Source: Candidatus Vogelbacteria bacterium
Lineage (GTDB): Bacteria; Patescibacteriota; Minisyncoccia; Phycocordibacterales; XYD1-FULL-46-19
Direction of reading: 5' to 3'
NCBI GenBank assembly: GCA_021414225.1
Contig: JAIOOX010000002.1
Location: forward strand, 342,958 to 406,957
DNA: 64,000 bases
Shown: positions 1,683-13,810 of the stretch, one piece after another
Position numbering within the stretch: the first letter of the stretch is position 1
How the letters are laid out: the number at the start of each line of letters is the position of its first letter
Program-made: the position numbers and the translations under genes
The notes under the pieces: generated by a model
The model's database searches: none
Seen by the model: only the letters and a program-made list of their open reading frames with translations
What the model was told of the DNA's origin: nothing

Positions 1683-2045
1683 TTAGTCGTTCAGTTTGTG
1701 ATAATAAATGTACGATACTGCTAAAACCGCCAAGACTCCCAATGGGAAGAAGGTTATTCCAGTAAATCCATCCACCACCGCGAGACTAACAAAAGCAGCA
1801 ATAAAATCAAAAGCAAAACCAGCATAAGCCCACTCTTTCACCCGTTTTGGTATTTGGGGAATGATTAAAGCCAAAGACCCTAGAACTTTAAAGACCGCCA
1901 ACATTGTTCCAAAATAAACCGGATAACCAAGATGGGTAATCCCTTGAACTGCCATCTCACTTTGTGAGGTCAGGGCTGTCATCACCCCTTCAAACAAAAA
2001 TATCGCCCCCGTCGTCACCCAAAAAATTATTTTATCTTTTTTCAT
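1683..2045 (-). CDS. DoxX-family membrane protein
   Basis: 120 aa, four hydrophobic helices, DoxX-like pattern. Confidence 0.5.
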   Translation of the reverse strand: MKKDKIIFWVTTGAIFLFEGVMTALTSQSEMAVQGITHLGYPVYFGTMLAVFKVLGSLALIIPQIPKRVKEWAYAGFAFDFIAAFVSLAVVDGFTGITFFPLGVLAVLAVSYIYYHKLND

Positions 2046-2248
2046 AATTTTAAATTAGCTACTTAATACTATGTTATTTTTTTTGTTAATGATAAAAACC
2101 AACAATCCCATTCTATCACCTTAGATTTATTAGGAATACCAATAAAAGCATCTCGTCTCTTAACTTAAAAACGACCCCATTCAGAATACATCAACTCCCA
2201 GAGCTATTCTCTATATTAAACAAAGGGTGCTACCATGACTAGTAATAC

Positions 2249-3543: not shown

Positions 3544-3602
3544 TTTTGAACAGATTAGTCTAATAAAAATCTTTAGCTTGGAATAATACTCGAAAGAGAA
3601 TC

Positions 3603-4031
3603 CTATTCACTAGGAGAAAATTCAATTAGCCACTCAATACCATATTTATCTCTGAACATACCCGCATATGATCCCCAAGGACTATCTCCCATAGGTCCTT
3701 CTATTTCTCCTCCAATAGATAGACCGTCGAATAATCTCCCCGCTTCTTCTTTACTTTCTGCACTTATAACAATTTTACTTCGGTTTTCCCGTTCATTTAC
3801 TTTCCCCATAAAATCTGGAACGTCATTTCCAACCAACACATTGCCCGTACTGATAGGTAAGGCAATATACATAATTTTATTTTCCTCGTTTTCCGGTACA
3901 GGGAACTCAGCACTCGCCAAATCTTTGAAACGAACAATTTTGGTAAATTCTCCACCAAAGACTGATTTGTAAAAGGTAAAAGCTTCTTCGGCGTTGCCAT
4001 TGAAGTTAATCCAAGGATTTATTGTTGTCAT
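3603..4031 (-). CDS. VOC/glyoxalase-like (PhnB-like) protein; terminal cassette of the island
   Basis: 142 aa; MTTINPWINFNGNAEEAFTFYKSVFGG is the typical PhnB/VOC N-terminus. Confidence 0.6.
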   Translation of the reverse strand: MTTINPWINFNGNAEEAFTFYKSVFGGEFTKIVRFKDLASAEFPVPENEENKIMYIALPISTGNVLVGNDVPDFMGKVNERENRSKIVISAESKEEAGRLFDGLSIGGEIEGPMGDSPWGSYAGMFRDKYGIEWLIEFSPSE

Positions 4032-4077
4032 ACTTTAAGGCTATCAAATTACTTTCATTTAATAAAGTGGTTTCTAT

Positions 4078-4130
4078 TTACCCCTGGTTGGATAGGTTCA
4101 GAACTTTGGATTGGATGAGGGTTAAAAGAG
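4078..4130 (+). repeat. Island boundary repeat copy 1 (core cccctggttggataggttcagaac + ctttggattggatgagggttaaaag tail)
   Basis: One of six direct copies of the same 24-27-nt core; the tail is shared with copy 3. Confidence 0.85.
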
Positions 4131-4142
4131 AAGTTGAAGAAC

Positions 4143-5123
4143 TTATCCTATAATTTGTTTTGCGATAACCCTAGACATAACCAGTATTTCTCCTATTGAA
4201 CCTCCTCCTAAACGGCCCTTTCCATGCATACCATAAGCACATTCACCGAGGGCGTACATATTTTTTACTTTCGTTTCTCCTCGTTTATTTATACGGATAC
4301 CCCCTAGAACAAAATGGGGTTCAATATCAAGTTCTATTCTCTGTTTTCCATTTACGGCATACCTCTTGGCTGTTTTTTGATATTCTTTACAAATATCGTC
4401 GAACCGATGGTGAGCGTTATGAGCCCTCACTAAGTCGTGCGTTAGTTTAAGTCTTTTATTTTTCTCATCAATAAAATCAAAACTATACAAATTATCACTA
4501 GGGATGCATACCCCTTTAGAGTAAAACGGGTGCCTCATTACTAAATCTTGATACATAACAGTACACCCAGCCGCCCTAACAATCTCAAACATATTGTTTT
4601 GCACTCTTTCATCAACAAATTTATCTGATAATCTTGCTCTTAGCCCACCAAAACAAAAAACAATTTTCTGGCAATGAATAACACCCTGAGATGTCACAAC
4701 TTCTACATACTTACGACTTTTTTTAACGGAAATAACCTCGGCATAAATTCGACTGAAATCAGACTCTTTTTTTATTTTATTAAGCAGTAACTTGGGGTTG
4801 CTAACCTTTGCACCCAGATAAGAAGGTTCCATTTTTGTTAGGTGACTCAAATAAGTAAGTTCGTCATCAATATTGTTTACAAATATACTAACTAATTGCT
4901 TGTTACTTTTGCCGTAACTAGCCAAACTCATCGATTCTTTTAATGACGTCTGTTTTACTCCTCGTGACCTGATATTAAAGTAGGATTTATCACTAACCGT
5001 TTTCATATCAGGGGCAACAATTAGAAAATCATGTTTACCACCCACAATAAGATGGTGAGCCAAATAAAGACCAGAAAACCCAGCACCCACAATAACAATA
5101 TCTGTTGTTTTAATTTTTTCCAT
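4143..5123 (-). CDS. FAD/NAD(P)-binding oxidoreductase
   Basis: N-terminal Rossmann dinucleotide motif VIVGAGFSGLYLAHHL; 326 aa. Confidence 0.6.
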   Translation of the reverse strand: MEKIKTTDIVIVGAGFSGLYLAHHLIVGGKHDFLIVAPDMKTVSDKSYFNIRSRGVKQTSLKESMSLASYGKSNKQLVSIFVNNIDDELTYLSHLTKMEPSYLGAKVSNPKLLLNKIKKESDFSRIYAEVISVKKSRKYVEVVTSQGVIHCQKIVFCFGGLRARLSDKFVDERVQNNMFEIVRAAGCTVMYQDLVMRHPFYSKGVCIPSDNLYSFDFIDEKNKRLKLTHDLVRAHNAHHRFDDICKEYQKTAKRYAVNGKQRIELDIEPHFVLGGIRINKRGETKVKNMYALGECAYGMHGKGRLGGGSIGEILVMSRVIAKQIIG

Positions 5124-5153
5124 ATTATTTTAATTAATGATTTTAATTTTTAA

Positions 5154-5182
5154 TAAAAAAACTGCCCACAGGCAGTTTTTTT
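5154..5182. terminator. Bidirectional hairpin terminator (ctgcc caca ggcag, flanked by A8 and T7)
   Basis: Perfect stem with A-run 5' and T-run 3'. Confidence 0.6.
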
Positions 5183-5443
5183 ATTAATGTCAGAGATAAG
5201 TTTTTACTTACACATTAGAAAATAACCGCCTATTACGCCAAGCAGTCCACCAAAAAGTATTTTTCTTGTATGTATAATTCATATTTTGAGTGTAAATAAT
5301 TGAAATAAAAAAGTCAATCCTATTTAACAAGGTCGGTTACACTTACCCTTTACAACTAAGACTAAATATGATATAGTTAATCAGGAATAAAAACCGACCT
5401 AGCAATAGGTCACACCGGGCTAAGCCCAAGAAAGGACGTTCCC

Positions 5444-6349
5444 ATGTTCCGCAAGCTCTTTGTTATGTGTCTTATCTGTCTATCGGGAGTGGCTCCAGCC
5501 GACGATTGCTTGTTTGGCGGAAGTCACTCGGCCGACACCAACGGCGACCGCCGGATCAACTTGCCAGAAGTGTTACGGGTCATCCAGATCTACAACAGCC
5601 AAGGGAGTGCCTACCACACCAAGGTCGGCACCGAAGACGGTTTTGCTCCTGGCGAATGCGACCAAGGCTATAATTCGATCACGGTGCCGTACGGCGGCTC
5701 GGTCACCCTCAACCCAACAACGGTGGGTGCTACGGTACAGCCCTACAACTGGTACGCAGCCTTGGGTTTTGGCTACTGGATTTCTAGCCAAACCCCGAGT
5801 CTGACACTTACCAATTGTACTCCGGTAAACACTGGAGCGTACTTCTACCGGTCAACCAGTGGTGAGTATTTCTTCGTTAAGGTCACTGGGGTGGCCGACT
5901 TACAGTTGATCGCCTACCCCAACAACGGTCCCTGGCTCGCGGTAGCCTTCAGCCTAAACGGGTTGAGCCTTGGCCAGTTACTGGCTTCCCCACTTCAAGA
6001 TGGCGAAGTGGTAATCGGCCTCAAAGTCATTATTGAGGTTGGTGACAAGTGCTTCACGGATGTGGGGGTATTCAATTACCAACCACTGCTGACCGGGATT
6101 TACGAGGCCAACGTCGTGAGTTTCGACGGCGAAGGGGTGCTTGATTGTTCGGGCCAGCCGGCTACGAACATTGACTTCACTAATCTGCCGACAGGCACAA
6201 CGGTCAGTTTTCAGTTGGCGGTAAAGAGGTCAGATCTGCCAGACACCTATCAGCACTTTGTCGACATCCGGCCCGAGAACACGTTCTTGAGCCTGAACCA
6301 GACACAGGCCTTGGTCTCTACCGGAACCGGTAGCTGGCTGTACAAGTAA
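5444..6349 (+). CDS. Secreted GC-rich protein with N-terminal dockerin/EF-hand-like Ca-binding repeat
   Basis: Signal peptide MFRKLFVMCLICLSGVAPA; DTNGDRRINLPEVLRVIQ matches the dockerin DxNxDGxxN/D pattern; RBS AAAGGA; GC-rich relative to host. Confidence 0.55.
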   Translation: MFRKLFVMCLICLSGVAPADDCLFGGSHSADTNGDRRINLPEVLRVIQIYNSQGSAYHTKVGTEDGFAPGECDQGYNSITVPYGGSVTLNPTTVGATVQPYNWYAALGFGYWISSQTPSLTLTNCTPVNTGAYFYRSTSGEYFFVKVTGVADLQLIAYPNNGPWLAVAFSLNGLSLGQLLASPLQDGEVVIGLKVIIEVGDKCFTDVGVFNYQPLLTGIYEANVVSFDGEGVLDCSGQPATNIDFTNLPTGTTVSFQLAVKRSDLPDTYQHFVDIRPENTFLSLNQTQALVSTGTGSWLYK

Positions 6350-6376
6350 CAGTCAAAATCGCTATAACACACCTTA

Positions 6377-6416
6377 CCCCGCCGCTTCATTCAGAAGTGG
6401 CGGGGTTGAATTTTTT
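6377..6416 (+). terminator. Rho-independent terminator (ccccgccgcttc/gaagtggcgggg + T-run)
   Basis: 12-bp stem (one G-U) then ttgaatttttt, 28 nt after the stop. Confidence 0.65.
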
Positions 6417-6465
6417 AAATATAGATCAATAATAAAAATTATAACTAAGCCTCTAATACAAAAAA

Positions 6466-6492
6466 ATCACCAAAAACTTGGGTGATTTTTTC
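6466..6492. terminator. Bidirectional hairpin (atcacc...ggtgat) between A6 and T6
   Basis: Seen in sequence immediately left of repeat copy 2. Confidence 0.4.
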
Positions 6493-6497
6493 TACTC

Positions 6498-6536
6498 ACT
6501 CCCCTGGTTGGATAGGTTTAGAACAGTGGAGTGGTC
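6498..6536 (+). repeat. Island boundary repeat copy 2 (core + cagtggagtgg tail)
   Basis: tcccctggttggataggtttagaacagtggagtgg; the tail is shared with copies 5 and 6. Confidence 0.85.
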
Positions 6537-6602
6537 AGTAATTAAAAAAATCTAAATAATATATCTTTACATTTACCTAATTTGAATTAATATCTACTAT
6601 TA

Positions 6603-7211
6603 ATGATAACTTCGGACAAAGAACGACAAGCTCCAACTAAAACTTTAGAAGCGGAACCTTCTCATTTAGCCCGCTATCAATTTGCGCTAAAATTTATAAA
6701 AAATGAAGACATTATATTAGATACTCCATGCGGAAGTGGTTACGGTTCAAATTTATTATCCACTAAAGCAAAAATGGTTACGGGAATAGATATTCATCCT
6801 GGAGCAATTCAACACGCTAAAGAGTTTTTTCACAATGATAAAATAGATTTTTTTGTGGCTGATATGCAAAATCTAGAAATTCATTTTCCAGACAGTAAAA
6901 AATTTAATCTAATTGTTAGTTTTGAAGGAATTGAACATATAAAAGACCAAACTAAATTTTTAAGTAGCGCTTCTAAACTTATAAATAAAGATGGGTACTT
7001 AATCATTTCTACCCCTCGAAAACCACATGGAAGTCCATACCACACCGTAGAATTTTCTTTAGAGAGTTTTAGGGATATATTGTCAAAAAGTTTTGTTATA
7101 GAAAAAATGTTTGGTCAGATATATACGGATATATTTGATATGGAAGAAAGAAAAGAAAATCCCGAAGATTATCACAGATTTAATTTTATTGCTCTTTGTA
7201 AAGCAAAGTAA
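6603..7211 (+). CDS. Class I SAM-dependent methyltransferase
   Basis: Motif I LDTPCGSGYGSNLL; 202 aa; AT-rich, unlike the neighbouring cassettes. Confidence 0.65.
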   Translation: MITSDKERQAPTKTLEAEPSHLARYQFALKFIKNEDIILDTPCGSGYGSNLLSTKAKMVTGIDIHPGAIQHAKEFFHNDKIDFFVADMQNLEIHFPDSKKFNLIVSFEGIEHIKDQTKFLSSASKLINKDGYLIISTPRKPHGSPYHTVEFSLESFRDILSKSFVIEKMFGQIYTDIFDMEERKENPEDYHRFNFIALCKAK

Positions 7212-7276
7212 AGTATTGCTCCCCTGGTTGGATAGGTTTAGAACTTTGGATTGAATGAGGGTTAAAAATGAATTAA
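7193..7276 (+). repeat. Island boundary repeat copy 3 (inverted extension ctttgtaaagcaaagtaaagta overlapping the MTase stop, then core, then the copy-1-type tail)
   Basis: Core 7218-7244 identical to the other copies; the extension is in inverted orientation relative to copies 4-6. Confidence 0.8.
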
Positions 7277-7287
7277 CTTGTCTAAAT

Positions 7288-7608
7288 TTAACACTCTACC
7301 CATTGTCCATCTAAAAAATTGACTACGGAAGTTCCTCCAACACAGTCGCCATTTTCATAATAAGCTACCTGGATGGTTGTAACCAAACTGGAAGCTTCTT
7401 GGTACTGACCTTTTCTGGTATACCTATATTCTGTTACTTCTCCATCTGATGCCCCAGGTACTTCAACTTCCCACAGATAAATACCTTGTTCATCTTCAAG
7501 ACAACGAGTAGTTTTATACTCTCCCTCTATATGTCTTCCAAAAACAGCTGATATTTCATCTTGGTTTGGAATGGATTCTAGACTTCCCTGTTCATAGTTT
7601 TCTTTCAT
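7288..7608 (-). CDS. Hypothetical protein (106 aa)
   Basis: ORF only; no recognisable motif. Confidence 0.4.
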   Translation of the reverse strand: MKENYEQGSLESIPNQDEISAVFGRHIEGEYKTTRCLEDEQGIYLWEVEVPGASDGEVTEYRYTRKGQYQEASSLVTTIQVAYYENGDCVGGTSVVNFLDGQWVEC

Positions 7609-7650
7609 ATAAATAATTCTAGCACAAAATAGTTAAAATTTAGTTACTTA

Positions 7651-7697
7651 TAAAAACAAAAGCCGCCCAACGAGTCGGGAGACTTTCGTGGACGGAC
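7651..7697 (-). terminator. Island-family terminator (imperfect GC hairpin + U-run on the minus strand)
   Basis: aaaaacaaaagccgcccaacgagtcgggagactttcgtggacgg; shares the aatttagtt..tataaaaacaaaa..ccgcc architecture with the terminators at 9225, 10214 and 11447. Confidence 0.4.
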
Positions 7698-7708
7698 ATA
7701 CCTCAAAC

Positions 7709-8173
7709 TTAGAAACTGATAACATCTCCGACGATGATTACACCATCGGTCAGAATGCGGGCCCGAAGACCCCCTCTGCCCTGGAAAGCAGTTTCGAATC
7801 CAGGCTTCTTCGCCAAAGCTGAAGGTCGATTGCACGGAGTGCAGAGTTCTACTCCGAGCATCCTGACATCTCCGACCGAGAACTCTTGGCCGACCAGAGT
7901 GTTTAGATCAACCCTTTCGGTTAGAATATTGCGACGGGTATCTTCTGGAGAAAAAGGAATCTCGACTTCCTTGTTTGCTTCTGCAATTGCCTCGACAGCT
8001 ATCAGAGAAACATCACGAAAGGTTTCGCCTACTCTGTGTTTTGAGAAAGCTCCCCTTCCGTCTTTGTACCGATCGCCCTCCAACCCGCGACCCGTAATGG
8101 CATTAACTGCTTGCACAGATACCATTGGTTGCCCTTTATCAGAGGCAACATATATTGCTCTCACATTTGGCAT
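7709..8173 (-). CDS. MOSC-domain protein
   Basis: 154 aa; conserved GDRY, late conserved Cys (CTPCNRP), MOSC beta-barrel length; RBS AAAGGGG; GC-rich. Confidence 0.6.
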   Translation of the reverse strand: MPNVRAIYVASDKGQPMVSVQAVNAITGRGLEGDRYKDGRGAFSKHRVGETFRDVSLIAVEAIAEANKEVEIPFSPEDTRRNILTERVDLNTLVGQEFSVGDVRMLGVELCTPCNRPSALAKKPGFETAFQGRGGLRARILTDGVIIVGDVISF

Positions 8174-8276
8174 GATTTACCCCTTTCGTAGGACTAAGGT
8201 TTCGGTTTCAATTATGTACTACACTAATAGTATTTCTAGCAGAAAATTTAAGAAAAAGAAAACTGTATAATTCTAA

Positions 8277-8340
8277 TACTTTACTTTGCTTTACAAAAGC
8301 TCCCCTGGTTGGATAGGTTTAGAACAATAAACTGGACGAA
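8277..8340 (+). repeat. Island boundary repeat copy 4 (25-nt tRNA-flank extension + core)
   Basis: tactttactttgctttacaaaagctcccctggttggataggtttagaac; the first 25 nt are identical to the sequence abutting the tRNA-Asn 3' end. Confidence 0.85.
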
Positions 8341-8409
8341 GATTGAGGAAGAATTAAGTATTTTGAGTTTGGTAGAAAAAACTCCGTACCCTCAGGGGCG
8401 CGGAGTTGC

Positions 8410-9147
8410 TTAGAGCACATCTTGTTTCTTGTATTTTTGCAAACTTTGTTTAAGTCTTCCTCTCGCTGTTTTAAGTTGCTGACTAACAGCCGATGAGGAT
8501 GATCGGCCATACATAGCAACGATCTGTTCCTGATTCAAACCCTCGAGATAGTACCAAACCAGCAATTGTCGATGAATCGGTTTTAAATCTTCTAAGGCTC
8601 GCCTGACGATATCCCTCCTTTCTTCCCTTAATATTTGGGCTATGGGATCATGCGTCTGATCATCTTTTACAACTTCAGACAGAGGCGACAACTCTTCTTC
8701 GTGTTGTTTTCCGCCTAAGTGTGCATTTAGAGACAGAATTCCGACATGGGATTTCCCTATCTTTTCCTCTACCCGCTCCAGGGTTAGACCCATCGCTTCA
8801 GCCATTTCATTGAGCGTTGGACGCCTCAATAATTTATGGCTGAGCTGAACTTCTACCTTATCCAGATCTTTCCTGTGACTACGCTGAGTGCGCATACTTA
8901 ACACCAAACCTGGTCGTAAACAGTCGTACATAGCCCCCAGAACATGCCGATAGCAAAAAGTTTTGAAAGTAGCCTTCGATTTTTTACTATCAAAACAATC
9001 CGCTGATTCAATCAGGGCTTCAAGCCCAGCTGAATAGAAATCTTCAAACCGCAGATGAAGTGGCAACTTTTCACACACTTTAAGAGCCAGAGACCGCACA
9101 AAGTCGATCTGGCTGAGAATCAGGACTTCTCGCTCGCTCATGGCCAA
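8410..9147 (-). CDS. RNA polymerase sigma factor, sigma-70 family (regions 2 and 4), located inside the cassette array
   Basis: 245 aa; region 2-like FEDFYSAGLEALIESADCFD and region 4 HTH QLLVWYYLEGLNQEQIVAMYGRSSSSAVSQQLKTARGRL. Confidence 0.65.
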   Translation of the reverse strand: MAMSEREVLILSQIDFVRSLALKVCEKLPLHLRFEDFYSAGLEALIESADCFDSKKSKATFKTFCYRHVLGAMYDCLRPGLVLSMRTQRSHRKDLDKVEVQLSHKLLRRPTLNEMAEAMGLTLERVEEKIGKSHVGILSLNAHLGGKQHEEELSPLSEVVKDDQTHDPIAQILREERRDIVRRALEDLKPIHRQLLVWYYLEGLNQEQIVAMYGRSSSSAVSQQLKTARGRLKQSLQKYKKQDVL

Positions 9148-9224
9148 ACCTCCTTTAAGTTAAGGGCCTTTCTATATTTCAGAATAGTCTTAAGGAAGAG
9201 ACATTGTCAAATTTAGTTTAGTAT

Positions 9225-9264
9225 AAAAACAAAAACCGCCCCCCAACGGTTTCCGTGGTGGACG
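9225..9264 (-). terminator. Island-family terminator
   Basis: aaaaacaaaaaccgccccccaacggtttccgtggtggacgg; U-run on the minus strand after the sigma-70 family factor gene 8410..9147? No - it lies downstream of gene 9270..9620. Confidence 0.4.
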
Positions 9265-9269
9265 GCAAA

Positions 9270-9620
9270 TTACTTCTCAAGTTTAGAAAACCCTCCCTGG
9301 CCGAGCAAGATCCAGACCCAGAAATTTGTCAGTCTGCCTGGCGCCATTTCAGAGACATCATCGGTAATCGCCTGGCTACGCTTTTCCAGAGATTCGCGAC
9401 GTGTTGGATAATCATTGGCGAAGATCAGAATTTCCAAAGGTCGCTTCACAACATCAAAACGGCCAATGTCCATGAAGCGAAGTTCAATATCTTCCGGAGT
9501 AAGAGCACCCTCAGGAACCGAAAGATGTTGGGCGATAATGACTGGTAACTTCTGACGGAGAAGCAGCAGTAGTCCATCGCTGATTTTTGACGGATCTCTG
9601 GTAACAAACGCTACGGGCAT
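9270..9620 (-). CDS. Tautomerase/MIF-like superfamily protein (putative)
   Basis: 116 aa starting Met-Pro (MPVAFVTRDP...DGLLLLLRQKLPVIIAQHLSVP), parallel to the MIF/4-OT N-terminus; AGGAGGTG RBS 6 nt upstream; GC-rich. Confidence 0.4.
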   Translation of the reverse strand: MPVAFVTRDPSKISDGLLLLLRQKLPVIIAQHLSVPEGALTPEDIELRFMDIGRFDVVKRPLEILIFANDYPTRRESLEKRSQAITDDVSEMAPGRLTNFWVWILLGQGGFSKLEK

Positions 9621-9657
9621 ATTCCACCTCCTTTCCGAAGGTTGTTGTTCTGAACAT

Positions 9658-9664
9658 ATTACTA
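9658..9664 (-). promoter_or_regulatory. Cassette promoter -10 element TGnTAGTAAT (minus strand), about 30 nt upstream of the 9620 start
   Basis: Same 10-mer as at 10054 and 11753. Confidence 0.4.
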
Positions 9665-9682
9665 ACAGAAATTCAGGTAAAA

Positions 9683-9725
9683 GAAAAACCGCCTCCTCAA
9701 CGCGGGTTTCCTTGTTGAGGGGCGG
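9683..9725 (-). terminator. Island-family terminator; 25-nt identity with the thrS terminator
   Basis: aagaaaaaccgcctcctcaacgcgg is identical to 44543-44567; hairpin ccgcctcctcaac...gttgaggggcgg. Confidence 0.55.
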
Positions 9726-9752
9726 TACGTGTAGCGATTGAATGAAAAAGGT

Positions 9753-10010
9753 TCAGTTCGTGACGGTCGCTGCGACTTCCGCTGGCTCCTGGTCTGTGAT
9801 CTGGAGCTGGACACTCTTGGCAACACGGCACTGCTGATCGATCCCGAACGCAACAGACTTCGCTGTCCAGGCCTCGATAATAGCCTGATGCCCCTTCGGC
9901 ACCTTGGTTGCCTCGATGAGCTGCCCAAGAACTATCATTTCACCAACCGATGAAGCACTGTTGATTGCATCCACGATAGACTCGTGGAAAGGCTTATGAT
10001 CACTCGGCAA
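9753..10010 (-). CDS. Hypothetical protein; start probably TTG at 10010, the longest ORF extends to GTG 10064
   Basis: The TTGACG-N17-TAGTAAT promoter overlaps the 10064 GTG; AAAAGGAGG lies 4-5 nt before an in-frame TTG. Confidence 0.4.
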   Translation of the reverse strand: MPSDHKPFHESIVDAINSASSVGEMIVLGQLIEATKVPKGHQAIIEAWTAKSVAFGIDQQCRVAKSVQLQITDQEPAEVAATVTN

Positions 10011-10053
10011 GGGACCTCCTTTTAGCCATGGTTGTATGGCTTTTTCTGTACTG

Positions 10054-10083
10054 ATTACTAACACAAATTTATGTATTCGTCAA
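10054..10083 (-). promoter_or_regulatory. Sigma-70-type promoter TTGACG-N17-TAGTAAT (minus strand)
   Basis: -35 at 10078-10083, -10 at 10054-10060, spacing exactly 17. Confidence 0.5.
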
Positions 10084-10109
10084 GTATAGCTTACCGGAAC
10101 AAAAAAAAC

Positions 10110-10213
10110 ACTTTACTTTGCTTTACAAAAGCTCCCCTGGTTGGATAGGTTCAGAACAGTGAATTGGAAAGAAGTTGAAAATGAATTAAATAGATTTAGT
10201 TTTGTATAAAAAG
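10110..10213 (+). repeat. Island boundary repeat copy 5 (extension + core + tail with aatagatttagttttgtataaaaa)
   Basis: About 100 nt alignable with copy 6. Confidence 0.85.
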
Positions 10214-10250
10214 AAAAACCGCCCAACCTGAAACTGCATTGGGCAGTCTT
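10214..10250 (-). terminator. Island-family terminator (gcccaa...ttgggc hairpin + U-run)
   Basis: aaaaaccgcccaacctgaaactgcattgggcag. Confidence 0.5.
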
Positions 10251-10281
10251 CTGGCCTGGCGGCACAACATTGAATCCAACT

Positions 10282-11253
10282 TCACTTCGGCAACCTCTGC
10301 TTAACATCATCGGGCATGGCGGCGCGAACTTTTGTCCGTAACGTGGCAGCACCCGTACAGATGTCTCCCAACTCACTGACAAGGCCAACGTTGTTTCCGA
10401 GGTTCCGACCCGCAAGAGCCTTTCTCAGACGTTCAGGAGCAATCTGTTCTGTGAGGAACTTCATGTCCGCAATAATCCGAGCAATACGGGTCGTAACCAG
10501 TTCAATGTCGTCCGATGGCCGACGATCTCGCCCCCGTGCAGCCCTCTTTACTTCTCCGCCGCGGGCCTCGACTTCCGTGTAGGAGCGACGAATGATTTCC
10601 CTGGCTTCATCAGCTCGCTTTCCCTTGATTCTCGGCACCAAGCTGAGTTGTTCCTCTTTAGGGAGACGAGACAACTCAGAGGCCACCGAGATCGGCAAAC
10701 GTTGATCCCGCGGAGTGTTGGGCTGGAATTTCTGCTGGAGTTCGTACGGTAAGTCAAGCAGTTCGAGATATTTCTTGAGCGTTTGTTCGCCGATCCCCAA
10801 CCGTCGCACGATTTCTGGCCACTTCATGTCGTATTCGGTGAGGAACCGTTGTACAACCTTGGCAATTTCCATTTCCGTATGGGGTTCGCGGTGGAAGTTA
10901 GCGGTCGCAGAGGCCAGGTAGTGTTCCTTGGCATCCTTGACAGAGATCACTATTGCTTTGAGCAAAATCTTGACCTCTTTAGCAGACTTCCAACGACGCT
11001 CTCCGTCAACCAGAAAATACTCGATGCCTTTGTTCCTCTTTCCGTAGGCGGCACAGACAATGATGGGATCTTTCTGTCCATCCGTCTTCATTGAATTACC
11101 GAGATTTTGGAGTGCCACAAGGCCGAAGTGTTTCCGAGGTTGATCGGGGAAGTGATCGATCACACTTGGATCAATCTCCCAGATCACACCAACTTGTTTT
11201 GGTTTGGCCATAAGCCAGAACCCTCCCTTGATACTGTTAAGTAGTTGCGTCAA
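10282..11253 (-). CDS. ParB-like nuclease (ParB/Srx N-terminal) domain protein; probable true start ATG 11211
   Basis: Catalytic-region motif YFLVDGERRWKSAKE (ParB GERRxRA box); AAGGGAGGG RBS 9 nt before the 11211 ATG; GC-rich. Confidence 0.6.
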   Translation of the reverse strand: MTQLLNSIKGGFWLMAKPKQVGVIWEIDPSVIDHFPDQPRKHFGLVALQNLGNSMKTDGQKDPIIVCAAYGKRNKGIEYFLVDGERRWKSAKEVKILLKAIVISVKDAKEHYLASATANFHREPHTEMEIAKVVQRFLTEYDMKWPEIVRRLGIGEQTLKKYLELLDLPYELQQKFQPNTPRDQRLPISVASELSRLPKEEQLSLVPRIKGKRADEAREIIRRSYTEVEARGGEVKRAARGRDRRPSDDIELVTTRIARIIADMKFLTEQIAPERLRKALAGRNLGNNVGLVSELGDICTGAATLRTKVRAAMPDDVKQRLPK

Positions 11254-11340
11254 TGAGCTGAGAAATTCGGCTCTGCATTAAAAACTGCCAGATTTATGGA
11301 ATAAAAGCAAGCGCAAAAAATTATCAAATCTAAGTCTGAA

Positions 11341-11446
11341 TACTTTACTTTGCTTTACAAAAGCTCCCCTGGTTGGATAGGTTTAGAACAGTGGACTGGA
11401 GGAAGGTTAAGTTAGATACAGAAAAATTTAGTTTTATATAAAACAA
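11341..11446 (+). repeat. Island boundary repeat copy 6 (extension + core + tail)
   Basis: tactttactttgctttacaaaagctcccctggttggataggtttagaacagtggactgga... Confidence 0.85.
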
Positions 11447-11450
11447 CAAA

Positions 11451-11491
11451 CCCGCCTCGCGACGACGATTCAGGTTCGTTGTCGGGGCGGG
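11451..11491 (-). terminator. Island-family terminator (cccgcctcgcgacg...cgttgtcggggcggg + U-run)
   Basis: The 15-mer acccgcctcgcgacg and the 13-mer ttgtcggggcggg recur at 35622-35662. Confidence 0.6.
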
Positions 11492-11492
11492 A

Positions 11493-11696
11493 TTAAAATA
11501 ACAGGAGACACCAGATGCTTCCAAATATTCCCCATTGTTCGGTACCACATTCAGAACACGTGTGTGCTTCGGTGTTGTTTACACAATTATCACTATGTTC
11601 CCAAATGTTTCCGCACTTTGGACATTTGTGCTTATGAGTCCGAGACGGATCCATTCTTTCGTCACCAGGACTAGCACAATCTCTCACATTCGCCAT
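11493..11696 (-). CDS. Small Zn-ribbon protein (CPKC...CSEC)
   Basis: 67 aa; RBS AAAGGAGGGAGG; first cassette after tRNA-Asn. Confidence 0.5.
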   Translation of the reverse strand: MANVRDCASPGDERMDPSRTHKHKCPKCGNIWEHSDNCVNNTEAHTCSECGTEQWGIFGSIWCLLLF

Positions 11697-11752
11697 TTGA
11701 CCTCCCTCCTTTCGTAGGGTTTTGGTTTCAGTTGAATAGTTTTTCTGATTTA

Positions 11753-11782
11753 ATTACTAACACGGATATAGGTATCAGTCAA
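11753..11782 (-). promoter_or_regulatory. Sigma-70-type promoter TTGACT-N17-TAGTAAT (minus strand)
   Basis: -35 at 11777-11782, -10 at 11753-11759, spacer 17. Confidence 0.5.
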
Positions 11783-11822
11783 TACTGACATAACGCAACA
11801 ACTTTACTTTGCTTTACAAAAG

Positions 11823-11895
11823 CTCCGCGACCAGGGCTCGAACCTGGGACATCCTCGTTAACAGCGAGGCGCTCTACCGACTGAGCTATCGCGGA
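11823..11895 (-). tRNA. tRNA-Asn (anticodon GTT)
   Basis: Perfect 7-bp acceptor stem UCCGCGA/UCGCGGA; D-arm GCTCAGTCGGTAGAGC; anticodon stem-loop CCTCG-CTGTTAA-CGAGG; T-arm CCAGG-TTCGAGC-CCTGG; no encoded CCA. Confidence 0.9.
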
Positions 11896-12001
11896 ATATA
11901 TTGCCTTCCAGACAACAGCAAAATCATACCAAAAATAGAGAAAAAAGCAAAAGGTCTAATCCTTCTAAAAATCCCCTCCTCAGTGCTATACTAGCCTCAC
12001 C

Positions 12002-13810
12002 ATGAGACATAAATTACCAACCACCTGGGACCTCTCCCCTTTTTACAAAAGTGACACTGACCCCAAAATTGCCCAGGATCTCAAACGCTCCGCGGACAGG
12101 GTTCGAATCTTTGTTAAGACCTGGCAAGCTGATGAATCTTACTTATCAAACCCAACCAGACTCAAACAAGCCCTGGATGAGTACGAGGAACTCGAACGAA
12201 CTACCGGCCTATCTAGTGGTTACGGTTATTACCTGTCTCTACGTTTAGCTCAAGAAGAAAACAATCCCAAACTAAAAGCTGCGGCTAGCAAATTAAAAGA
12301 TCATGCGATTGGTCTGGCTAACGAAATCGAATTTTTCACTATCCGCTTAGCCAAAGTACCAACTAGTATTCAACAAAAATTCTTGGTTGATAAAAACTTA
12401 GCTCCTTATCACTATTTTCTAAAAAAGCTTTTCGAACACGCCAAATATATTCTATCCGAACCAGAAGAAAAGATTATGAATCTTAAGAGTGCTCCGGCTC
12501 ATGGCTACTGGACGGAAATGCGCTCTAACTTGATGGCTGAGGAAATGCTCACCGTCAAAGACGAACAAGGAGTTAGACGATCTCGACCTTTTAGTGAAGC
12601 CTTAAACTTGTCTTCTAGTGCCAAAAAATCTGTCCGCGACGAAGCAGCTAAAGCAGTCCACCAATTAATGAAAACTTACGCCCGGATTGCTGAACACGAA
12701 ATAAACGCTATTTTGGAGGACAAGAAAATAAATGATCAGTTGCGAGGATTCTCCAGACCAGATCAGAGTCGCCACCTATCTGATGACATTGATACCGAGG
12801 TAGTCGATGCCATGATCAAGGCTGTTAGTGACAACTTTGATATTGCTCACAAATTTTATAAATTGAAAGCCAAGCTAGCCAAGCTACCAAAACTCGCCTA
12901 TCACGAACGCAACTTAGCTTACGGACAAACCGATAAAAAAATCACCTATTCGGAATCTGTTGATCTAGTTAGTCGATCTCTACACAACCTAGATTCGGAA
13001 TTTGGCACCATTTTTGACCGTTTCGCTACTAATGGTCAAATAGATGTCTACCCTAAACAAAACCGCTCTGACGGGGCTTTCTGTGCTGGCACTGGCGAAC
13101 TACCGAGTCTACCTACTTACATTCTTCTCAATCATACCGACAAATTGCGCGATACTTTAACTTTAGCCCATGAAGCTGGTCACGGTATCAACAATGAACT
13201 AATCAAACCAAAACAACACTCTCTTTATTACAGCACCCCTCTCTCGACCGCTGAGGTAGCTAGTACTTTTATGGAAGATTTTGTTCTCCAAGAAATAGCC
13301 AAAGAAGCTAATGATGAACTACGTTTAGGTTTAATGATGACCAAACTAAACGATGACATCTCCACTATTTTCCGCCAAGTGGCTTGTTATAAATTTGAGC
13401 AAGAGTTGCACGAGACTTTTCGACAGGAGGGCTTTTTACCCAAAGAAAAGATCGGGCAGATTTTCCAAAAACACATGAAAGCTTACATGGGCCCAAGTGT
13501 CTCTCAAGATCCAGGCTCAGAAAATTGGTGGGTGTATTGGAGTCACATTCGTAATTTCTTTTATGTATATTCTTACGCTTCAGGTTTGATTATCTCTAAA
13601 GCTTTACAAGCCGAAGTGAAGGCAGATAAAAAATTTGTCGAGAAGGTAAAGTACTTCCTCTCCGCCGGCACTTCCAATTCTCCAAAAAATATTTTCAAAA
13701 ATATTGGCATCGATATTACCAAGACTGATTTCTGGACCAGTGGGGTCAAAGAAATCCGGGATTTACTAGCCGAGACAGAAAAACTTGCCAAAAAGTTAAA
13801 AAAGTGTTAG
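12002..13810 (+). CDS. pepF: Oligoendopeptidase F (M3B family)
   Basis: 602 aa; HEAGH zinc motif (TLAHEAGHGINN). Confidence 0.8.
   Translation: MRHKLPTTWDLSPFYKSDTDPKIAQDLKRSADRVRIFVKTWQADESYLSNPTRLKQALDEYEELERTTGLSSGYGYYLSLRLAQEENNPKLKAAASKLKDHAIGLANEIEFFTIRLAKVPTSIQQKFLVDKNLAPYHYFLKKLFEHAKYILSEPEEKIMNLKSAPAHGYWTEMRSNLMAEEMLTVKDEQGVRRSRPFSEALNLSSSAKKSVRDEAAKAVHQLMKTYARIAEHEINAILEDKKINDQLRGFSRPDQSRHLSDDIDTEVVDAMIKAVSDNFDIAHKFYKLKAKLAKLPKLAYHERNLAYGQTDKKITYSESVDLVSRSLHNLDSEFGTIFDRFATNGQIDVYPKQNRSDGAFCAGTGELPSLPTYILLNHTDKLRDTLTLAHEAGHGINNELIKPKQHSLYYSTPLSTAEVASTFMEDFVLQEIAKEANDELRLGLMMTKLNDDISTIFRQVACYKFEQELHETFRQEGFLPKEKIGQIFQKHMKAYMGPSVSQDPGSENWWVYWSHIRNFFYVYSYASGLIISKALQAEVKADKKFVEKVKYFLSAGTSNSPKNIFKNIGIDITKTDFWTSGVKEIRDLLAETEKLAKKLKKC

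Follow-up and report, generated by a model that had tools for sequence, protein, structure and literature searches.

Introduction

The closest described systems to the locus studied here are the SSV-type "suicidal" tyrosine integrases of archaea and the "gene capture" they cause (She et al. 2001; reviewed in PMC8371274 and PMC7253208). In these elements attP lies inside the integrase ORF. Integration into a tRNA gene splits the integrase gene into two pieces that flank the element. Trapped elements then decay, leaving integrase fragments and captured genes beside the tRNA. The review states that self-disrupting recombinases are found exclusively in archaea.

Phage-type large serine integrases (A118/LI, Bxb1, phiC31) instead use simple att sites of ~40-50 bp. 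They have a Resolvase, Recombinase and Zn ribbon domain set followed by a coiled-coil region, and an outer motif lies 5 bp closer to the centre in attB than in attP. Canonical serine integrases recombine only attP with attB (PMC3783163). They were described as not known to target tRNA genes (PMC4383910), or as doing so only rarely and without proof (14 of 297, PMC7192596). Two further systems build arrays. Integrons (IntI, attI, attC) have a fixed entry point with the newest unit next to the anchor, and unrelated genes are separated by a conserved site. Tandem islands also form at tRNA genes, where integrase-less derivatives flanked by att sites accrete serially at one chromosomal site and may depend on an enzyme supplied in trans (CIMEs with ICEs, and IMEX elements at dif).

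Here we describe an array of repeats at a tRNA-Asn(GTT) gene of a Candidatus Vogelbacteria (CPR/Patescibacteria) genome, in a 64,000-nt stretch (the window; assembly GCA_021414225.1, contig JAIOOX010000002.1, positions 342,958 to 406,957). Our analysis assigns the repeats to the 3' ends of large serine recombinase (LSR) genes. Like the SSV-type integrases, this family has attP inside the integrase gene and is split on integration. It differs in that the enzyme is a serine rather than a tyrosine recombinase, the host is a bacterium, the split removes only the last ~25-40 codons, and identity with the tRNA is only 5-7 nt rather than tens of nt. Compared with phage-type serine integrases, the domain set, short att sites and 5-bp offset are shared. 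However, attP overlaps the integrase's own 3' coding end, the target is a tRNA 3' end, and tandem arrays imply repeated use of an occupied site, which canonical integrases do not allow. Compared with integrons, the array also has a fixed entry point and its recombinase is not part of the units, the newest unit is inferred to lie next to the anchor, and unrelated genes are separated by a conserved site, but the recombinase family differs, no folded attC is present, the units carry their own promoter-like and terminator elements, and the "site" is a gene fragment. CIMEs and IMEX elements share serial insertion at one chromosomal site and integrase-less derivatives, but they rely on tyrosine recombinases (or host XerCD), and their repeats are tRNA, gene-end or dif sequences. 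In the literature searched, we found no paper describing an integrase that cuts its own gene on integration for bacteria or for serine integrases.

Results

A repeat array adjoins tRNA-Asn

A preliminary description, made from the sequence alone, reported six direct copies of a 27-nt core and a 25-nt extension that also abuts tRNA-Asn(GTT). We confirmed that these repeats are real. Six same-strand copies of GCTCCCCTGGTTGGATAGGTTYAGAAC lie at 4078, 6498, 7218, 8299, 10131 and 11363 with 0-3 mismatches, against 0 expected in 100 shuffles. The positions first given were off by 0-3 nt. [quoted passage not shown] Similarity runs about 72 nt beyond the core start, and 114 nt for copies 4-6. An nhmmer search found no other copies in the 64 kb. 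The features of the array are collected in Table 1.

Table 1. Features of the tRNA-Asn array, in window coordinates
Coordinates	Strand	Feature	Supporting observations
11822..11895	-	tRNA-Asn(GTT); 3' end GGAGC is the integration point (attB half-site B'); the encoded CCA is missing after the first C	ARAGORN; Rfam, 69.7 bits; the relative L008, which has no insertion, encodes GGAGCCA
11802..11826	+	attL-type junction: integrase P-arm remnant (extension, codons LYFALQKL) fused to the antisense of the tRNA 3' end	ORF ends in QQLYFALQKLRDQGSNLGHPR, then stop; same geometry as the split integrase in locus L107
11343..11441	+	Repeat 6: extension, core and tail, LYFALQKLPWLDRFRTVDWRKVKLDTEKFSFI, then stop; has the form of an unsplit attP (P-O-P')	LSR C-terminal profile, E=6.4e-10
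10111..10209	+	Repeat 5: LYFALQKLPWLDRFRTVNWKEVENELNRFSFV, then stop	Profile, E=2.6e-11
8279..8413	+	Repeat 4: LYFALQKLPWLDRFRTINWTKIEEELSILSLVEKTPYPQGRGVA, then stop	Profile, E=3.6e-12
7218..7254	+	Repeat 3: LPWLDRFRTLD, then stop; the conserved Trp codon has become TGA; preceded by the exact reverse complement of the extension (7195-7217), which supplies the last 6 codons and the stop of the methyltransferase ORF	Profile, E=8.7e-06
6498..6555	+	Repeat 2: LPWLDRFRTVEWSVIKKI, then stop; no extension; left flank (6460-6492) is a terminator hairpin; attR-type junction, or the start of an older unit	Similar hairpins flank the distal junctions in many other loci; profile, E=9.7e-08
4010..4153	+	Repeat 1: longest integrase remnant, ending in YFKAIKLLSFNKVVSIYPWLDRFRTLDWMRVKREVEELIL, then stop; degenerate junction (GGTAA in place of GGAGC)	Profile, E=2.1e-08
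11493..11696	-	Unit 1 cargo: 67-aa protein (first called Zn-ribbon)	No Pfam hit
10282..11211	-	Unit 2 cargo: ParB_N/HTH_ParB protein	Pfam; 53%-identical homologue in another tRNA-Asn array (L011)
8410..10064	-	Unit 3 cargo: 103-aa unknown, 116-aa unknown and sigma-70 family factor, each with its own upstream module; a tail-end remnant at 9209-9241 suggests former junctions inside this unit	Pfam; 103-aa protein has a homologue in the first unit next to tRNA-Asn in locus L075
7288..8173	-	Unit 4 cargo: MOSC-domain protein and 106-aa unknown; tail-end remnant at 7636-7668	Pfam
6603..7211	+	Unit 5 cargo: SAM-dependent methyltransferase, on the opposite strand to the other cargo	Pfam; GC 0.31
4143..6349	.	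Unit 6 cargo: FAD oxidoreductase (minus strand) and 301-aa protein (plus strand)	Pfam for the oxidoreductase, GC 0.36; no Pfam hit for the 301-aa protein, GC 0.54
3603..4031	-	VOC/glyoxalase gene just beyond repeat 1; may belong to an older unit; the outer limit of the island is not defined	Pfam; in the 75% relative L008 the whole stretch between the VanY gene and tRNA-Asn differs

The preliminary description also proposed at least 10 single-gene cassettes, each with its own expression signals. Instead, the six repeats delimit 6-7 units holding 11-12 genes. Shared promoter, UTR and terminator modules exist only among the G+C-rich units, and a consensus promoter/terminator scan was not enriched over shuffles. 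Of the functions first proposed, VOC, FAD oxidoreductase, SAM methyltransferase, MOSC, sigma-70 and ParB-like were confirmed by Pfam. The tautomerase-like, dockerin-like and Zn-ribbon calls have no Pfam support. Gene GC ranges from 0.307 to 0.543, against 0.419 for the window. A Pfam scan of about 40 ORFs showed no Resolvase or Phage_integrase domain, and tblastn with three LSRs found no LSR body in the window.

The first interpretation is partly supported. Iterated site-specific recombination at the tRNA-Asn 3' boundary, and the absence of the recombinase from the 64 kb, both hold. The locus is also polymorphic. The relatives L006/L004, with 90% PepF identity, carry a different first unit followed by the same repeat. 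The integron-like and new-platform parts are not supported. The repeat does not fold as an attC-like hairpin (z-scores between -0.7 and +0.9), no IntI is present among the ORFs scanned, the units have their own promoter-like and terminator elements, and the repeat is protein-coding in origin. A true integron, although suggested by unrelated genes separated by a conserved direct repeat next to a fixed anchor, is thus contradicted and is extremely unlikely.

The repeats are 3' ends of large serine recombinase genes

The preliminary description treated the repeat as a non-coding site. However, on the + strand every repeat reads as the C-terminus of a protein, (LYFALQK)LPWLDRFRTx[DN]W. The + frame is open in all copies, and changes are synonymous or conservative. 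The homologous repeat in L011 differs by many synonymous changes, including AGT to TCT (Ser) and TTG to CTC (Leu). The extension is the adjoining 7-8 codons of the same gene, that is, the other att arm.

We therefore asked which proteins end in this motif. A profile of the window tails found 29 proteins that do. A degenerate DNA pattern found at least 120 metagenome loci, the taxonomy of most of which is undetermined. Full-length ORFs ending in the motif are LSRs: locus L044 has Resolvase, Recombinase and Zn_ribbon_recom domains, and loci L120 and L017 match as well. A profile built only from nine non-window LSR C-termini retrieved exactly the six window repeats out of 3018 six-frame segments (E from 3.6e-12 to 8.7e-06; the next best hit is 0.14). 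The recombinase family can thus be identified in other genomes, but no LSR with the window's exact tail (LPWLDRFRT) was found anywhere, and the cognate enzyme is inferred rather than seen.

The integrase family probably targets the 3' end of tRNA-Asn

Of 28 loci holding any tRNA, 20 hold tRNA-Asn(GTT). In all 20 the tail is on the opposite strand and on the 3' side of the tRNA, as in the window. One metagenome locus, L107, shows the intact case. A 499-aa LSR reads into the tRNA 3' end (ADSPI/RLRR, then stop) and is truncated there. The cargo that follows is a type III restriction-modification system, and the missing tail, LPVLDKFRTLNW, lies 9042 nt away. A 48-nt direct repeat marks the two ends, and rejoining them restores the reading frame.

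The sites have LSR half-site architecture. GTTC lies 22 nt from the junction in the tRNA and 27 nt from it in every tail. This 5-bp shift of the zinc-ribbon-domain motif toward the centre in attB is the published LSR rule (PMC3783163). The Leu codon at the junction covaries with the 3' end of the target tRNA: CTC pairs with Asn GGAGC, CTG with Gln(CTG) GGCAGC, and CTA with Gln(TTG) GGTAGC. There is also DNA-level constraint on top of coding. Across 143 tails, GCTCCC occurs in 75%, the Arg codon is AGA in 97%, and GAAC sits at +19 in 100%. Since the metagenome pattern selects intact motifs only, the apparent conservation of orphan tails is partly ascertainment.

A classical tRNA-linked island made by tyrosine integrases, with displaced tRNA 3' fragments as the direct repeats, is contradicted for the window and very unlikely. 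The site is a tRNA 3' end, and L011 does carry one 18-nt direct copy of its tRNA-Asn 3' end. However, identity with the tRNA in the window is only 5 nt, Rfam finds no tRNA-like match in any repeat at E<=5, the repeat is an LSR gene end, and no tyrosine recombinase is present among the ORFs scanned.

Decay, mobility and homologous recombination

Integrase 3' remnants of graded length sit upstream of unsplit junctions. Lengths are 8, 12, 34, 79, 111, 138 and 217 codons, which is consistent with decay. Four junctions in the window, however, keep an extension with the same outer boundary, about one LSR half-site from the crossover, and independent decay does not explain that. The inverted extension at copy 3 is likewise unexplained.

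These boundaries could be attributed to a working, integron-like cassette system. In this view the integrase-less units are the mobile entity, each with a complete ~52-bp attP and standard promoter, UTR and terminator modules, and an LSR encoded elsewhere excises and inserts them one at a time at the tRNA junction. Extension plus core are almost 100% identical in copies 4-6, while the tails are only 60-80% identical. The modules shared by the G+C-rich units are also visible in L006 and L011. In 18 of 20 tRNA-Asn loci the first tail lies less than 2.2 kb from the tRNA, too close to hold an integrase gene. Yet across 138 junctions the side opposite the tail shows no conserved arm (at most 0.3 bit per position), and L006 has no extension at all. 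A two-armed attP is therefore not general. No circular form or empty site was seen, and the graded remnants point to decay instead. We regard this reading as possible but tentative.

Alternatively, the array may have been assembled or reshuffled mainly by homologous recombination between the conserved 50-110-nt repeats and the shared modules, after one or a few integrase-mediated insertions, as proposed for promoter/stem-loop cassettes in T4-type phages. The 52-nt identical repeats and shared modules give usable homology, and homologous recombination within the P arm would give the same products as site-specific crossover. CPR genomes are thought to take up DNA. However, junctions are sharp at GCTCC in 143 tails from unrelated contigs and covary with the tRNA end, which points to site-specific events. 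In most loci the flank opposite the tail shares no homology with other junctions. This alternative is unlikely as the main process.

Discussion

We conclude with good, though not complete, confidence that the six repeats are recombination junctions left by mobile elements that integrated, one after another, at the 3' end of tRNA-Asn(GTT). The enzyme would be an LSR whose attP lies inside the last ~30 codons of its own gene. We take three points as established by the sequence comparisons, with every recombination step itself inferred from sequence rather than observed. Each repeat is the displaced 3' end of such an integrase gene, the P' half-site followed by the coding tail LPxLDxFRTx[DN]W. 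The crossover falls in GCTCC, the Leu-Pro codons, which is the reverse complement of the tRNA end GGAGC. Integration splits the integrase gene, so that the body ends up next to the tRNA, reading into it, and the tail ends up at the far end of the element.

The remainder of the model is inference. The tRNA-side half-site (T-loop GTTC plus acceptor end) would be the only conserved part of attB. The tRNA junction would therefore stay usable after each integration, so that new elements push older ones outward. Repeated integration at an already occupied tRNA junction is not standard behaviour for serine integrases, and homologous recombination could have contributed. The split integrases would then decay and be deleted while cargo genes persist, as in gene capture. 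In this view all integrase bodies in the window are gone, leaving an integrase-less array of at least six accreted units with captured foreign genes. Copies 4-6 and the tRNA junction keep a 22-25-nt P-arm remnant, and extension plus core then form a 52-nt, almost invariant, attP-sized site. That site may still allow an integrase supplied from elsewhere to move these units.

Repeats beside tRNA-Asn and the genes between them

A 27-nt core occurs six times in the window, all on the + strand, and none is expected by chance. A 25-nt extension, CTTTACTTTGCTTTACAAAAGCTCC, is exact in front of three of these copies (copies 4-6). It occurs a fourth time where it runs into the 3′ end of tRNA-Asn(GTT), and copy 3 is preceded by its exact reverse complement. 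Similarity continues about 45 nt past the core at 60-80% identity, whereas extension plus core are almost invariant. A nucleotide profile of the repeat found no further copy in the 64 kb. The repeats reported in the preliminary description are therefore confirmed. Pfam confirms VOC, FAD oxidoreductase, methyltransferase, MOSC, sigma-70 and ParB-like genes between the repeats, with GC from 0.31 to 0.54 against 0.42 for the window. No recombinase domain, whether Phage_integrase or of the serine type, appears in about 40 window ORFs, and no body of a large serine recombinase (LSR) was found in the window.

The G+C-rich units share homologous upstream modules (TTGAC...TTAGTAAT), a 5′-UTR motif (GAAACC..AAACC..CGAAAGGAGG) and a terminator-plus-tail-end module (GGCGG-T-run-TATA..AAATTT). 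These may be standardised expression signals of the element family. The conserved modules carry TTGAC-type boxes and hairpin terminators, although a consensus scan for such signals was not enriched over shuffles. A perfect 17-bp inverted repeat with a 4-nt loop (TTAATAAAAAAACTGCC/GGCAGTTTTTTTATTAA) lies just upstream of the FAD oxidoreductase start, with a possible 24-aa ORF on the minus strand before it. Only weak, sub-threshold Rfam matches were found there. Elsewhere in the window lies a tRNA (Rfam 51 bits) for which ARAGORN cannot name an anticodon. By eye its anticodon loop has 8 nt (TTTAGCAA) between the stem halves CTAAC/GTTGG, and it may be an unusual or suppressor-type tRNA.

Coordinates of features in the window and in related loci
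Sequence	Position	Strand	Feature
Window	4078	+	Core, copy 1
Window	6498	+	Core, copy 2
Window	7218	+	Core, copy 3
Window	8299	+	Core, copy 4
Window	10131	+	Core, copy 5
Window	11363	+	Core, copy 6
Window	8279, 10111, 11343		Extension, exact, before copies 4, 5 and 6
Window	11802		Extension running into the tRNA-Asn 3′ end
Window	11802-11826		Extension/tRNA junction
Window	7191-7217		Inverted extension before copy 3, flanked by GCTC on both sides
Window	11822-11895	-	tRNA-Asn(GTT)
Window	12002-13810		PepF
Window	9209 and 7636		Tail-end remnants in units 3 and 4
Window	7636-7668, 9209-9241, 9645-9679, 10041-10102, 11740-11801, 8182-8207, 11708-11733		Shared modules of the G+C-rich units
Window	5150-5187 and 5195-5275		17-bp inverted repeat upstream of the FAD oxidoreductase, and possible 24-aa minus-strand ORF
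Window	39111-39189	-	tRNA without a named anticodon
L001 (Subsaxibacter sp. CAU 1640, NZ_JALNMI010000003.1)	6433-6457		Exact match to the core
L011 (GCA_964473855.1, CAYYQM010000028.1)	1954-2160		Region of the LSR-tail junction and copies of the tRNA-Asn 3′ end
L011	2141-2158		18-nt direct copy of the tRNA-Asn 3′ end
L011	about 2025-2075		Inverted, interrupted copy of that end
L014 (IMGVR_UViG_3300008065_000623)	4638-5126		5′-truncated integrase end
L107	45-118		tRNA-Asn

The locus is polymorphic among relatives

We next compared the locus with its relatives. Contigs from strains with 90% PepF identity (L004, L006) keep tRNA-Asn beside pepF. There the first unit after the tRNA is a different 145-aa gene, followed by the same core and tail, and neither junction carries the extension. 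A 75% relative (L008) has tRNA-Asn with an encoded CCA and no repeat. The locus is thus polymorphic, and the constant point is the tRNA end GGAGC. In the short-read assembly of the source sample (SRR15633504; contigs L002 and L003), contigs break exactly at the repeats. A 1247-nt ParB contig is present, and the pepF contig starts inside repeat 6. Such arrays will be under-assembled in metagenomes.

The repeats read as the ends of large serine recombinase genes

Read on the + strand, every copy gives (LYFALQK)LPWLDRFRT[VIL][DNE]W..[VI]..E...stop, and the F and T codons vary only synonymously. One minus-strand frame (...VLNLSNQGSFCKAK, stop) is also open because it shares wobble positions with the + frame. 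We rejected it as a small ORF, since it is low-complexity and has no start or SD, while the + frame matches LSR C-termini. The only homologues of the ParB cargo led to L011, another tRNA-Asn followed by same-strand unrelated genes. L011 contains a diverged copy of the core whose antisense reads LPLLDEFRTLNWTIIESELSFLNL. It differs from the window by many synonymous changes, including Ser AGT to TCT and Leu TTG to CTC, which is protein-level selection.

Exact-core scans of public collections gave a single match in 185,579 species genomes and none in viral contigs or JGI metagenomes. The single match lies in the C-terminus of a 324-aa Subsaxibacter protein (L001) that by appearance alone resembles a metallophosphoesterase (...YSPWLDRFRT..., ending ...KTYSPWLDRFRTEPSHQFEFKDVEF). 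We judge this to be probably chance or motif convergence, as roughly 0.07 random matches were expected. A word-indexed protein search with the tails found nothing. An unindexed profile search of 1.84 billion representatives found 29 proteins, most of them short ORFs ending in the motif, plus two longer fragments. One of these (P0136) matches the PHROGs integrase family phrog_95 at 4e-06. Pfam, NCBIfam and PDB searches with the LSR C-terminal fragments were uninformative.

A hand-made degenerate DNA pattern for LPxLDxFRTx[DN]W found at least 120 loci in one metagenome collection. Among 139 tails in those loci, most have a stop within a few codons upstream of (W/L)LP. L044 (524 aa), L120 (596 aa) and L017 (partial) are long ORFs ending in the motif. 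Pfam shows Resolvase, Recombinase and Zn_ribbon_recom, the domain set of LSRs, and LSR bodies are present in these loci and in L107, a locus holding an intact element. As a non-circular check, we built a profile from nine such C-termini, none from the window. It retrieves exactly the six window repeats out of 3018 six-frame segments (E from 3.6e-12 to 8.7e-06; next best 0.14). A predicted viral contig (L014) carries a 5′-truncated integrase end of 162 aa including the tail. From frame translations read by eye, it follows M23-peptidase-like and CHAP-like lysin ORFs, suggesting that phages also carry or pick up these fragments.

Integration at tRNA 3′ ends splits the integrase gene

Of 28 loci holding any tRNA, 20 hold tRNA-Asn(GTT). 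In all 20 the tail lies on the tRNA's 3′ side and on the opposite strand, as in the window. In L107, tRNA-Asn is followed directly by a 499-aa LSR on the other strand that reads into the tRNA end (...SPFDLVLELADSPI up to the junction, then RLRR and a stop). Type III restriction and modification genes and two unknown genes come next, and the missing tail (LPVLDKFRTLNW...) lies 9042 nt from the tRNA. A 48-nt direct repeat marks both ends, and the reading frame is restored when the ends are joined. Hence attP lies within the integrase's last ~30 codons, and integration splits the gene. The window itself holds tails and a P-arm remnant at the tRNA.

All tail junctions end ...GTTCTRAAC-N13-GGAGC, and all tRNA-Asn genes end GTTCGA..-N8-GGAGC. 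The GTTC motif is 27 nt from the junction in the element arm and 22 nt from it in the tRNA arm, the latter in 21 tRNA-Asn genes. Rutherford et al. showed that in serine-integrase sites the zinc-ribbon-domain motif of attB is shifted 5 bp toward the centre relative to attP (PMC3783163), and these sites follow that rule. Across 143 tails the DNA is more constrained than the protein needs, with GCTCCC in 75%, AGA as the Arg codon in 97% and GAAC at +19 in 143 of 143. LSRs cross over at a 2-bp central dinucleotide shared by attP and attB; the identity shared by the two partners here is GGAGC(CA), which does not single out the exact dinucleotide.

The Leu codon tracks the target tRNA. It is CTC beside tRNA-Asn (GGAGC), CTG beside tRNA-Gln(CTG) (GGCAGC; L076, L128) and CTA beside tRNA-Gln(TTG) (GGTAGC; L069, L044, L051), so that sub-families of the same integrase tail sit next to tRNA-Gln genes. 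In L069 both junctions are followed by nearly the same 45-nt hairpin, which the simple model does not predict. Many distal junctions read GGAGC-CA followed by a terminator hairpin, which is the original tRNA CCA and its terminator, and window copy 2 has such a hairpin. The Trp codon often seen before Leu-Pro (TGG CTC CC) mirrors GG GAG CCA.

Integron, dif and tyrosine-integrase readings

The preliminary description had called the array integron-like. The analogy holds only at the level of outcome. No IntI-type gene was found among the window ORFs scanned. DNA folding of extension plus core plus tail on both strands gave z-scores from -0.71 to +0.92 against shuffles, which rules against an attC-like hairpin. 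Integron cassettes are mostly promoterless and read from a common promoter; the units here have conserved upstream modules with TTGAC-type boxes and hairpin terminators, but the consensus scan for such signals was not enriched over shuffles. By eye the repeats showed no resemblance to the dif arms of a Xer site.

A classical tRNA-gene island made by a tyrosine integrase would leave a displaced tRNA fragment that restores the gene. The repeats loosely resemble a decayed tRNA 3′ half around GTTC, but only 5 nt are shared with the tRNA, Rfam finds no tRNA match in the repeats at E<=5, and the T-arm does not pair. The resemblance is better explained as the shared outer half-site motif. In L011, however, an 18-nt direct copy of the tRNA-Asn 3′ end and an inverted, interrupted copy of that end lie beside the LSR-tail junction. 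Other kinds of element may therefore use the same tRNA.

How the array may have arisen

In this scheme, the junction of extension and tRNA is attL-type, with the P arm joined to the tRNA. Copies 4-6 are unsplit P-O-P′ sites between units. Copy 2 is an attR-type end or the start of an older unit, and copy 1 is an older, degenerate junction with a longer integrase remnant. The tail-end remnants suggest lost junctions inside units 3 and 4. The sequences themselves show that the repeats derive from LSR gene ends and that the integrase gene is split at the tRNA. The route by which the array was built, including any reuse of an occupied junction, is inferred: serial integration by a self-splitting serine integrase at a tRNA end. 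The cognate enzyme of the window, an LSR that would end in ...LYFALQKLPWLDRFRT, is likewise inferred.

The flank opposite the tail is unconstrained across 138 junctions from the window and loci L006-L134 (at most 0.3 bit per position), so no second arm is general. Natural attB flanks differ between genomes, and only the tRNA half seems to be specified. That would leave the tRNA junction usable after each insertion. TTGAC occurs within about 20 nt after the junction (tRNA sense) in 18 of the 138 cases, against 2.7 expected. It is either a cassette promoter placed right at the unit start or a weak inner half-site (compare CTATTGGAC in the tail arm). In 18 of 20 tRNA-Asn loci the first tail lies less than 2.2 kb from the tRNA, too close for an integrase gene. 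Integrase 3′ remnants of 8 to 217 codons sit upstream of unsplit junctions, and loss of the split integrase appears to be the rule. This parallels the gene capture attributed to archaeal SSV-type integrases (PMC8371274).

Not every feature fits. Canonical serine integrases recombine only attP with attB, with excision needing a directionality factor, and repeated entry at an occupied site needs relaxed specificity or help from homologous recombination. The tandem arrays, on sequence evidence alone, argue for relaxed use of the occupied tRNA junction. The four window extensions end at the same base, about one half-site from the crossover, and the G+C-rich units share upstream, 5′-UTR and terminator modules; similar modules occur in L006 and L011. 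This looks more like a family of integrase-less attP cassettes than like independent decay. Yet L006 and most metagenome junctions lack any second arm. The inverted extension at copy 3 provides the last six codons and the stop of the methyltransferase ORF (...ALCKAK, stop), and none of the models considered produces this junction.

A broader reading is possible but doubtful. In this view, CPR bacteria would host a widespread family of large serine integrases that carry attP in their own last ~30 codons and target tRNA 3′ ends (Asn, Gln), thereby cutting their own gene on integration. Because only the tRNA half of attB would be specified, the site would be reusable and would build integron-like arrays. 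Integrase-less units that keep a full 52-bp attP, as in this window, could still be mobilised in trans, and orphan tails could serve as replacement C-termini on excision.

Implications

Serine integrases were reported as not known to use tRNA genes (PMC4383910). Mageeney et al. found 14 of 297 at t(m)RNA genes and called this previously unreported and unproven (PMC7192596). [quoted passage not shown] The family described here does both in bacteria, and with at least 120 loci in one metagenome collection it is common. It differs from the SSV family in being a serine recombinase and, in the window, in having a bacterial host, Candidatus Vogelbacteria, the name NCBI gives for proteins 100% identical to the window's PepF and ParB. 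It joins features of large serine integrase elements with those of self-splitting integrases and gene capture. We found no description of this family in the literature searched, which was incomplete, such that a prior description cannot be excluded.

The family offers natural pairs of att half-sites whose specificity visibly tracks the tRNA end through the Leu codon, and a compact integrase-plus-site module that could interest genome engineers. For annotation, dozens of short hypothetical proteins ending in LPxLDxFRTxDW are integrase scars, not genes. For the biology of reduced genomes, it gives a concrete route by which very small CPR genomes acquire and retain foreign genes at one site, with cargo that includes restriction-modification, ParB-like, sigma-factor and redox genes.
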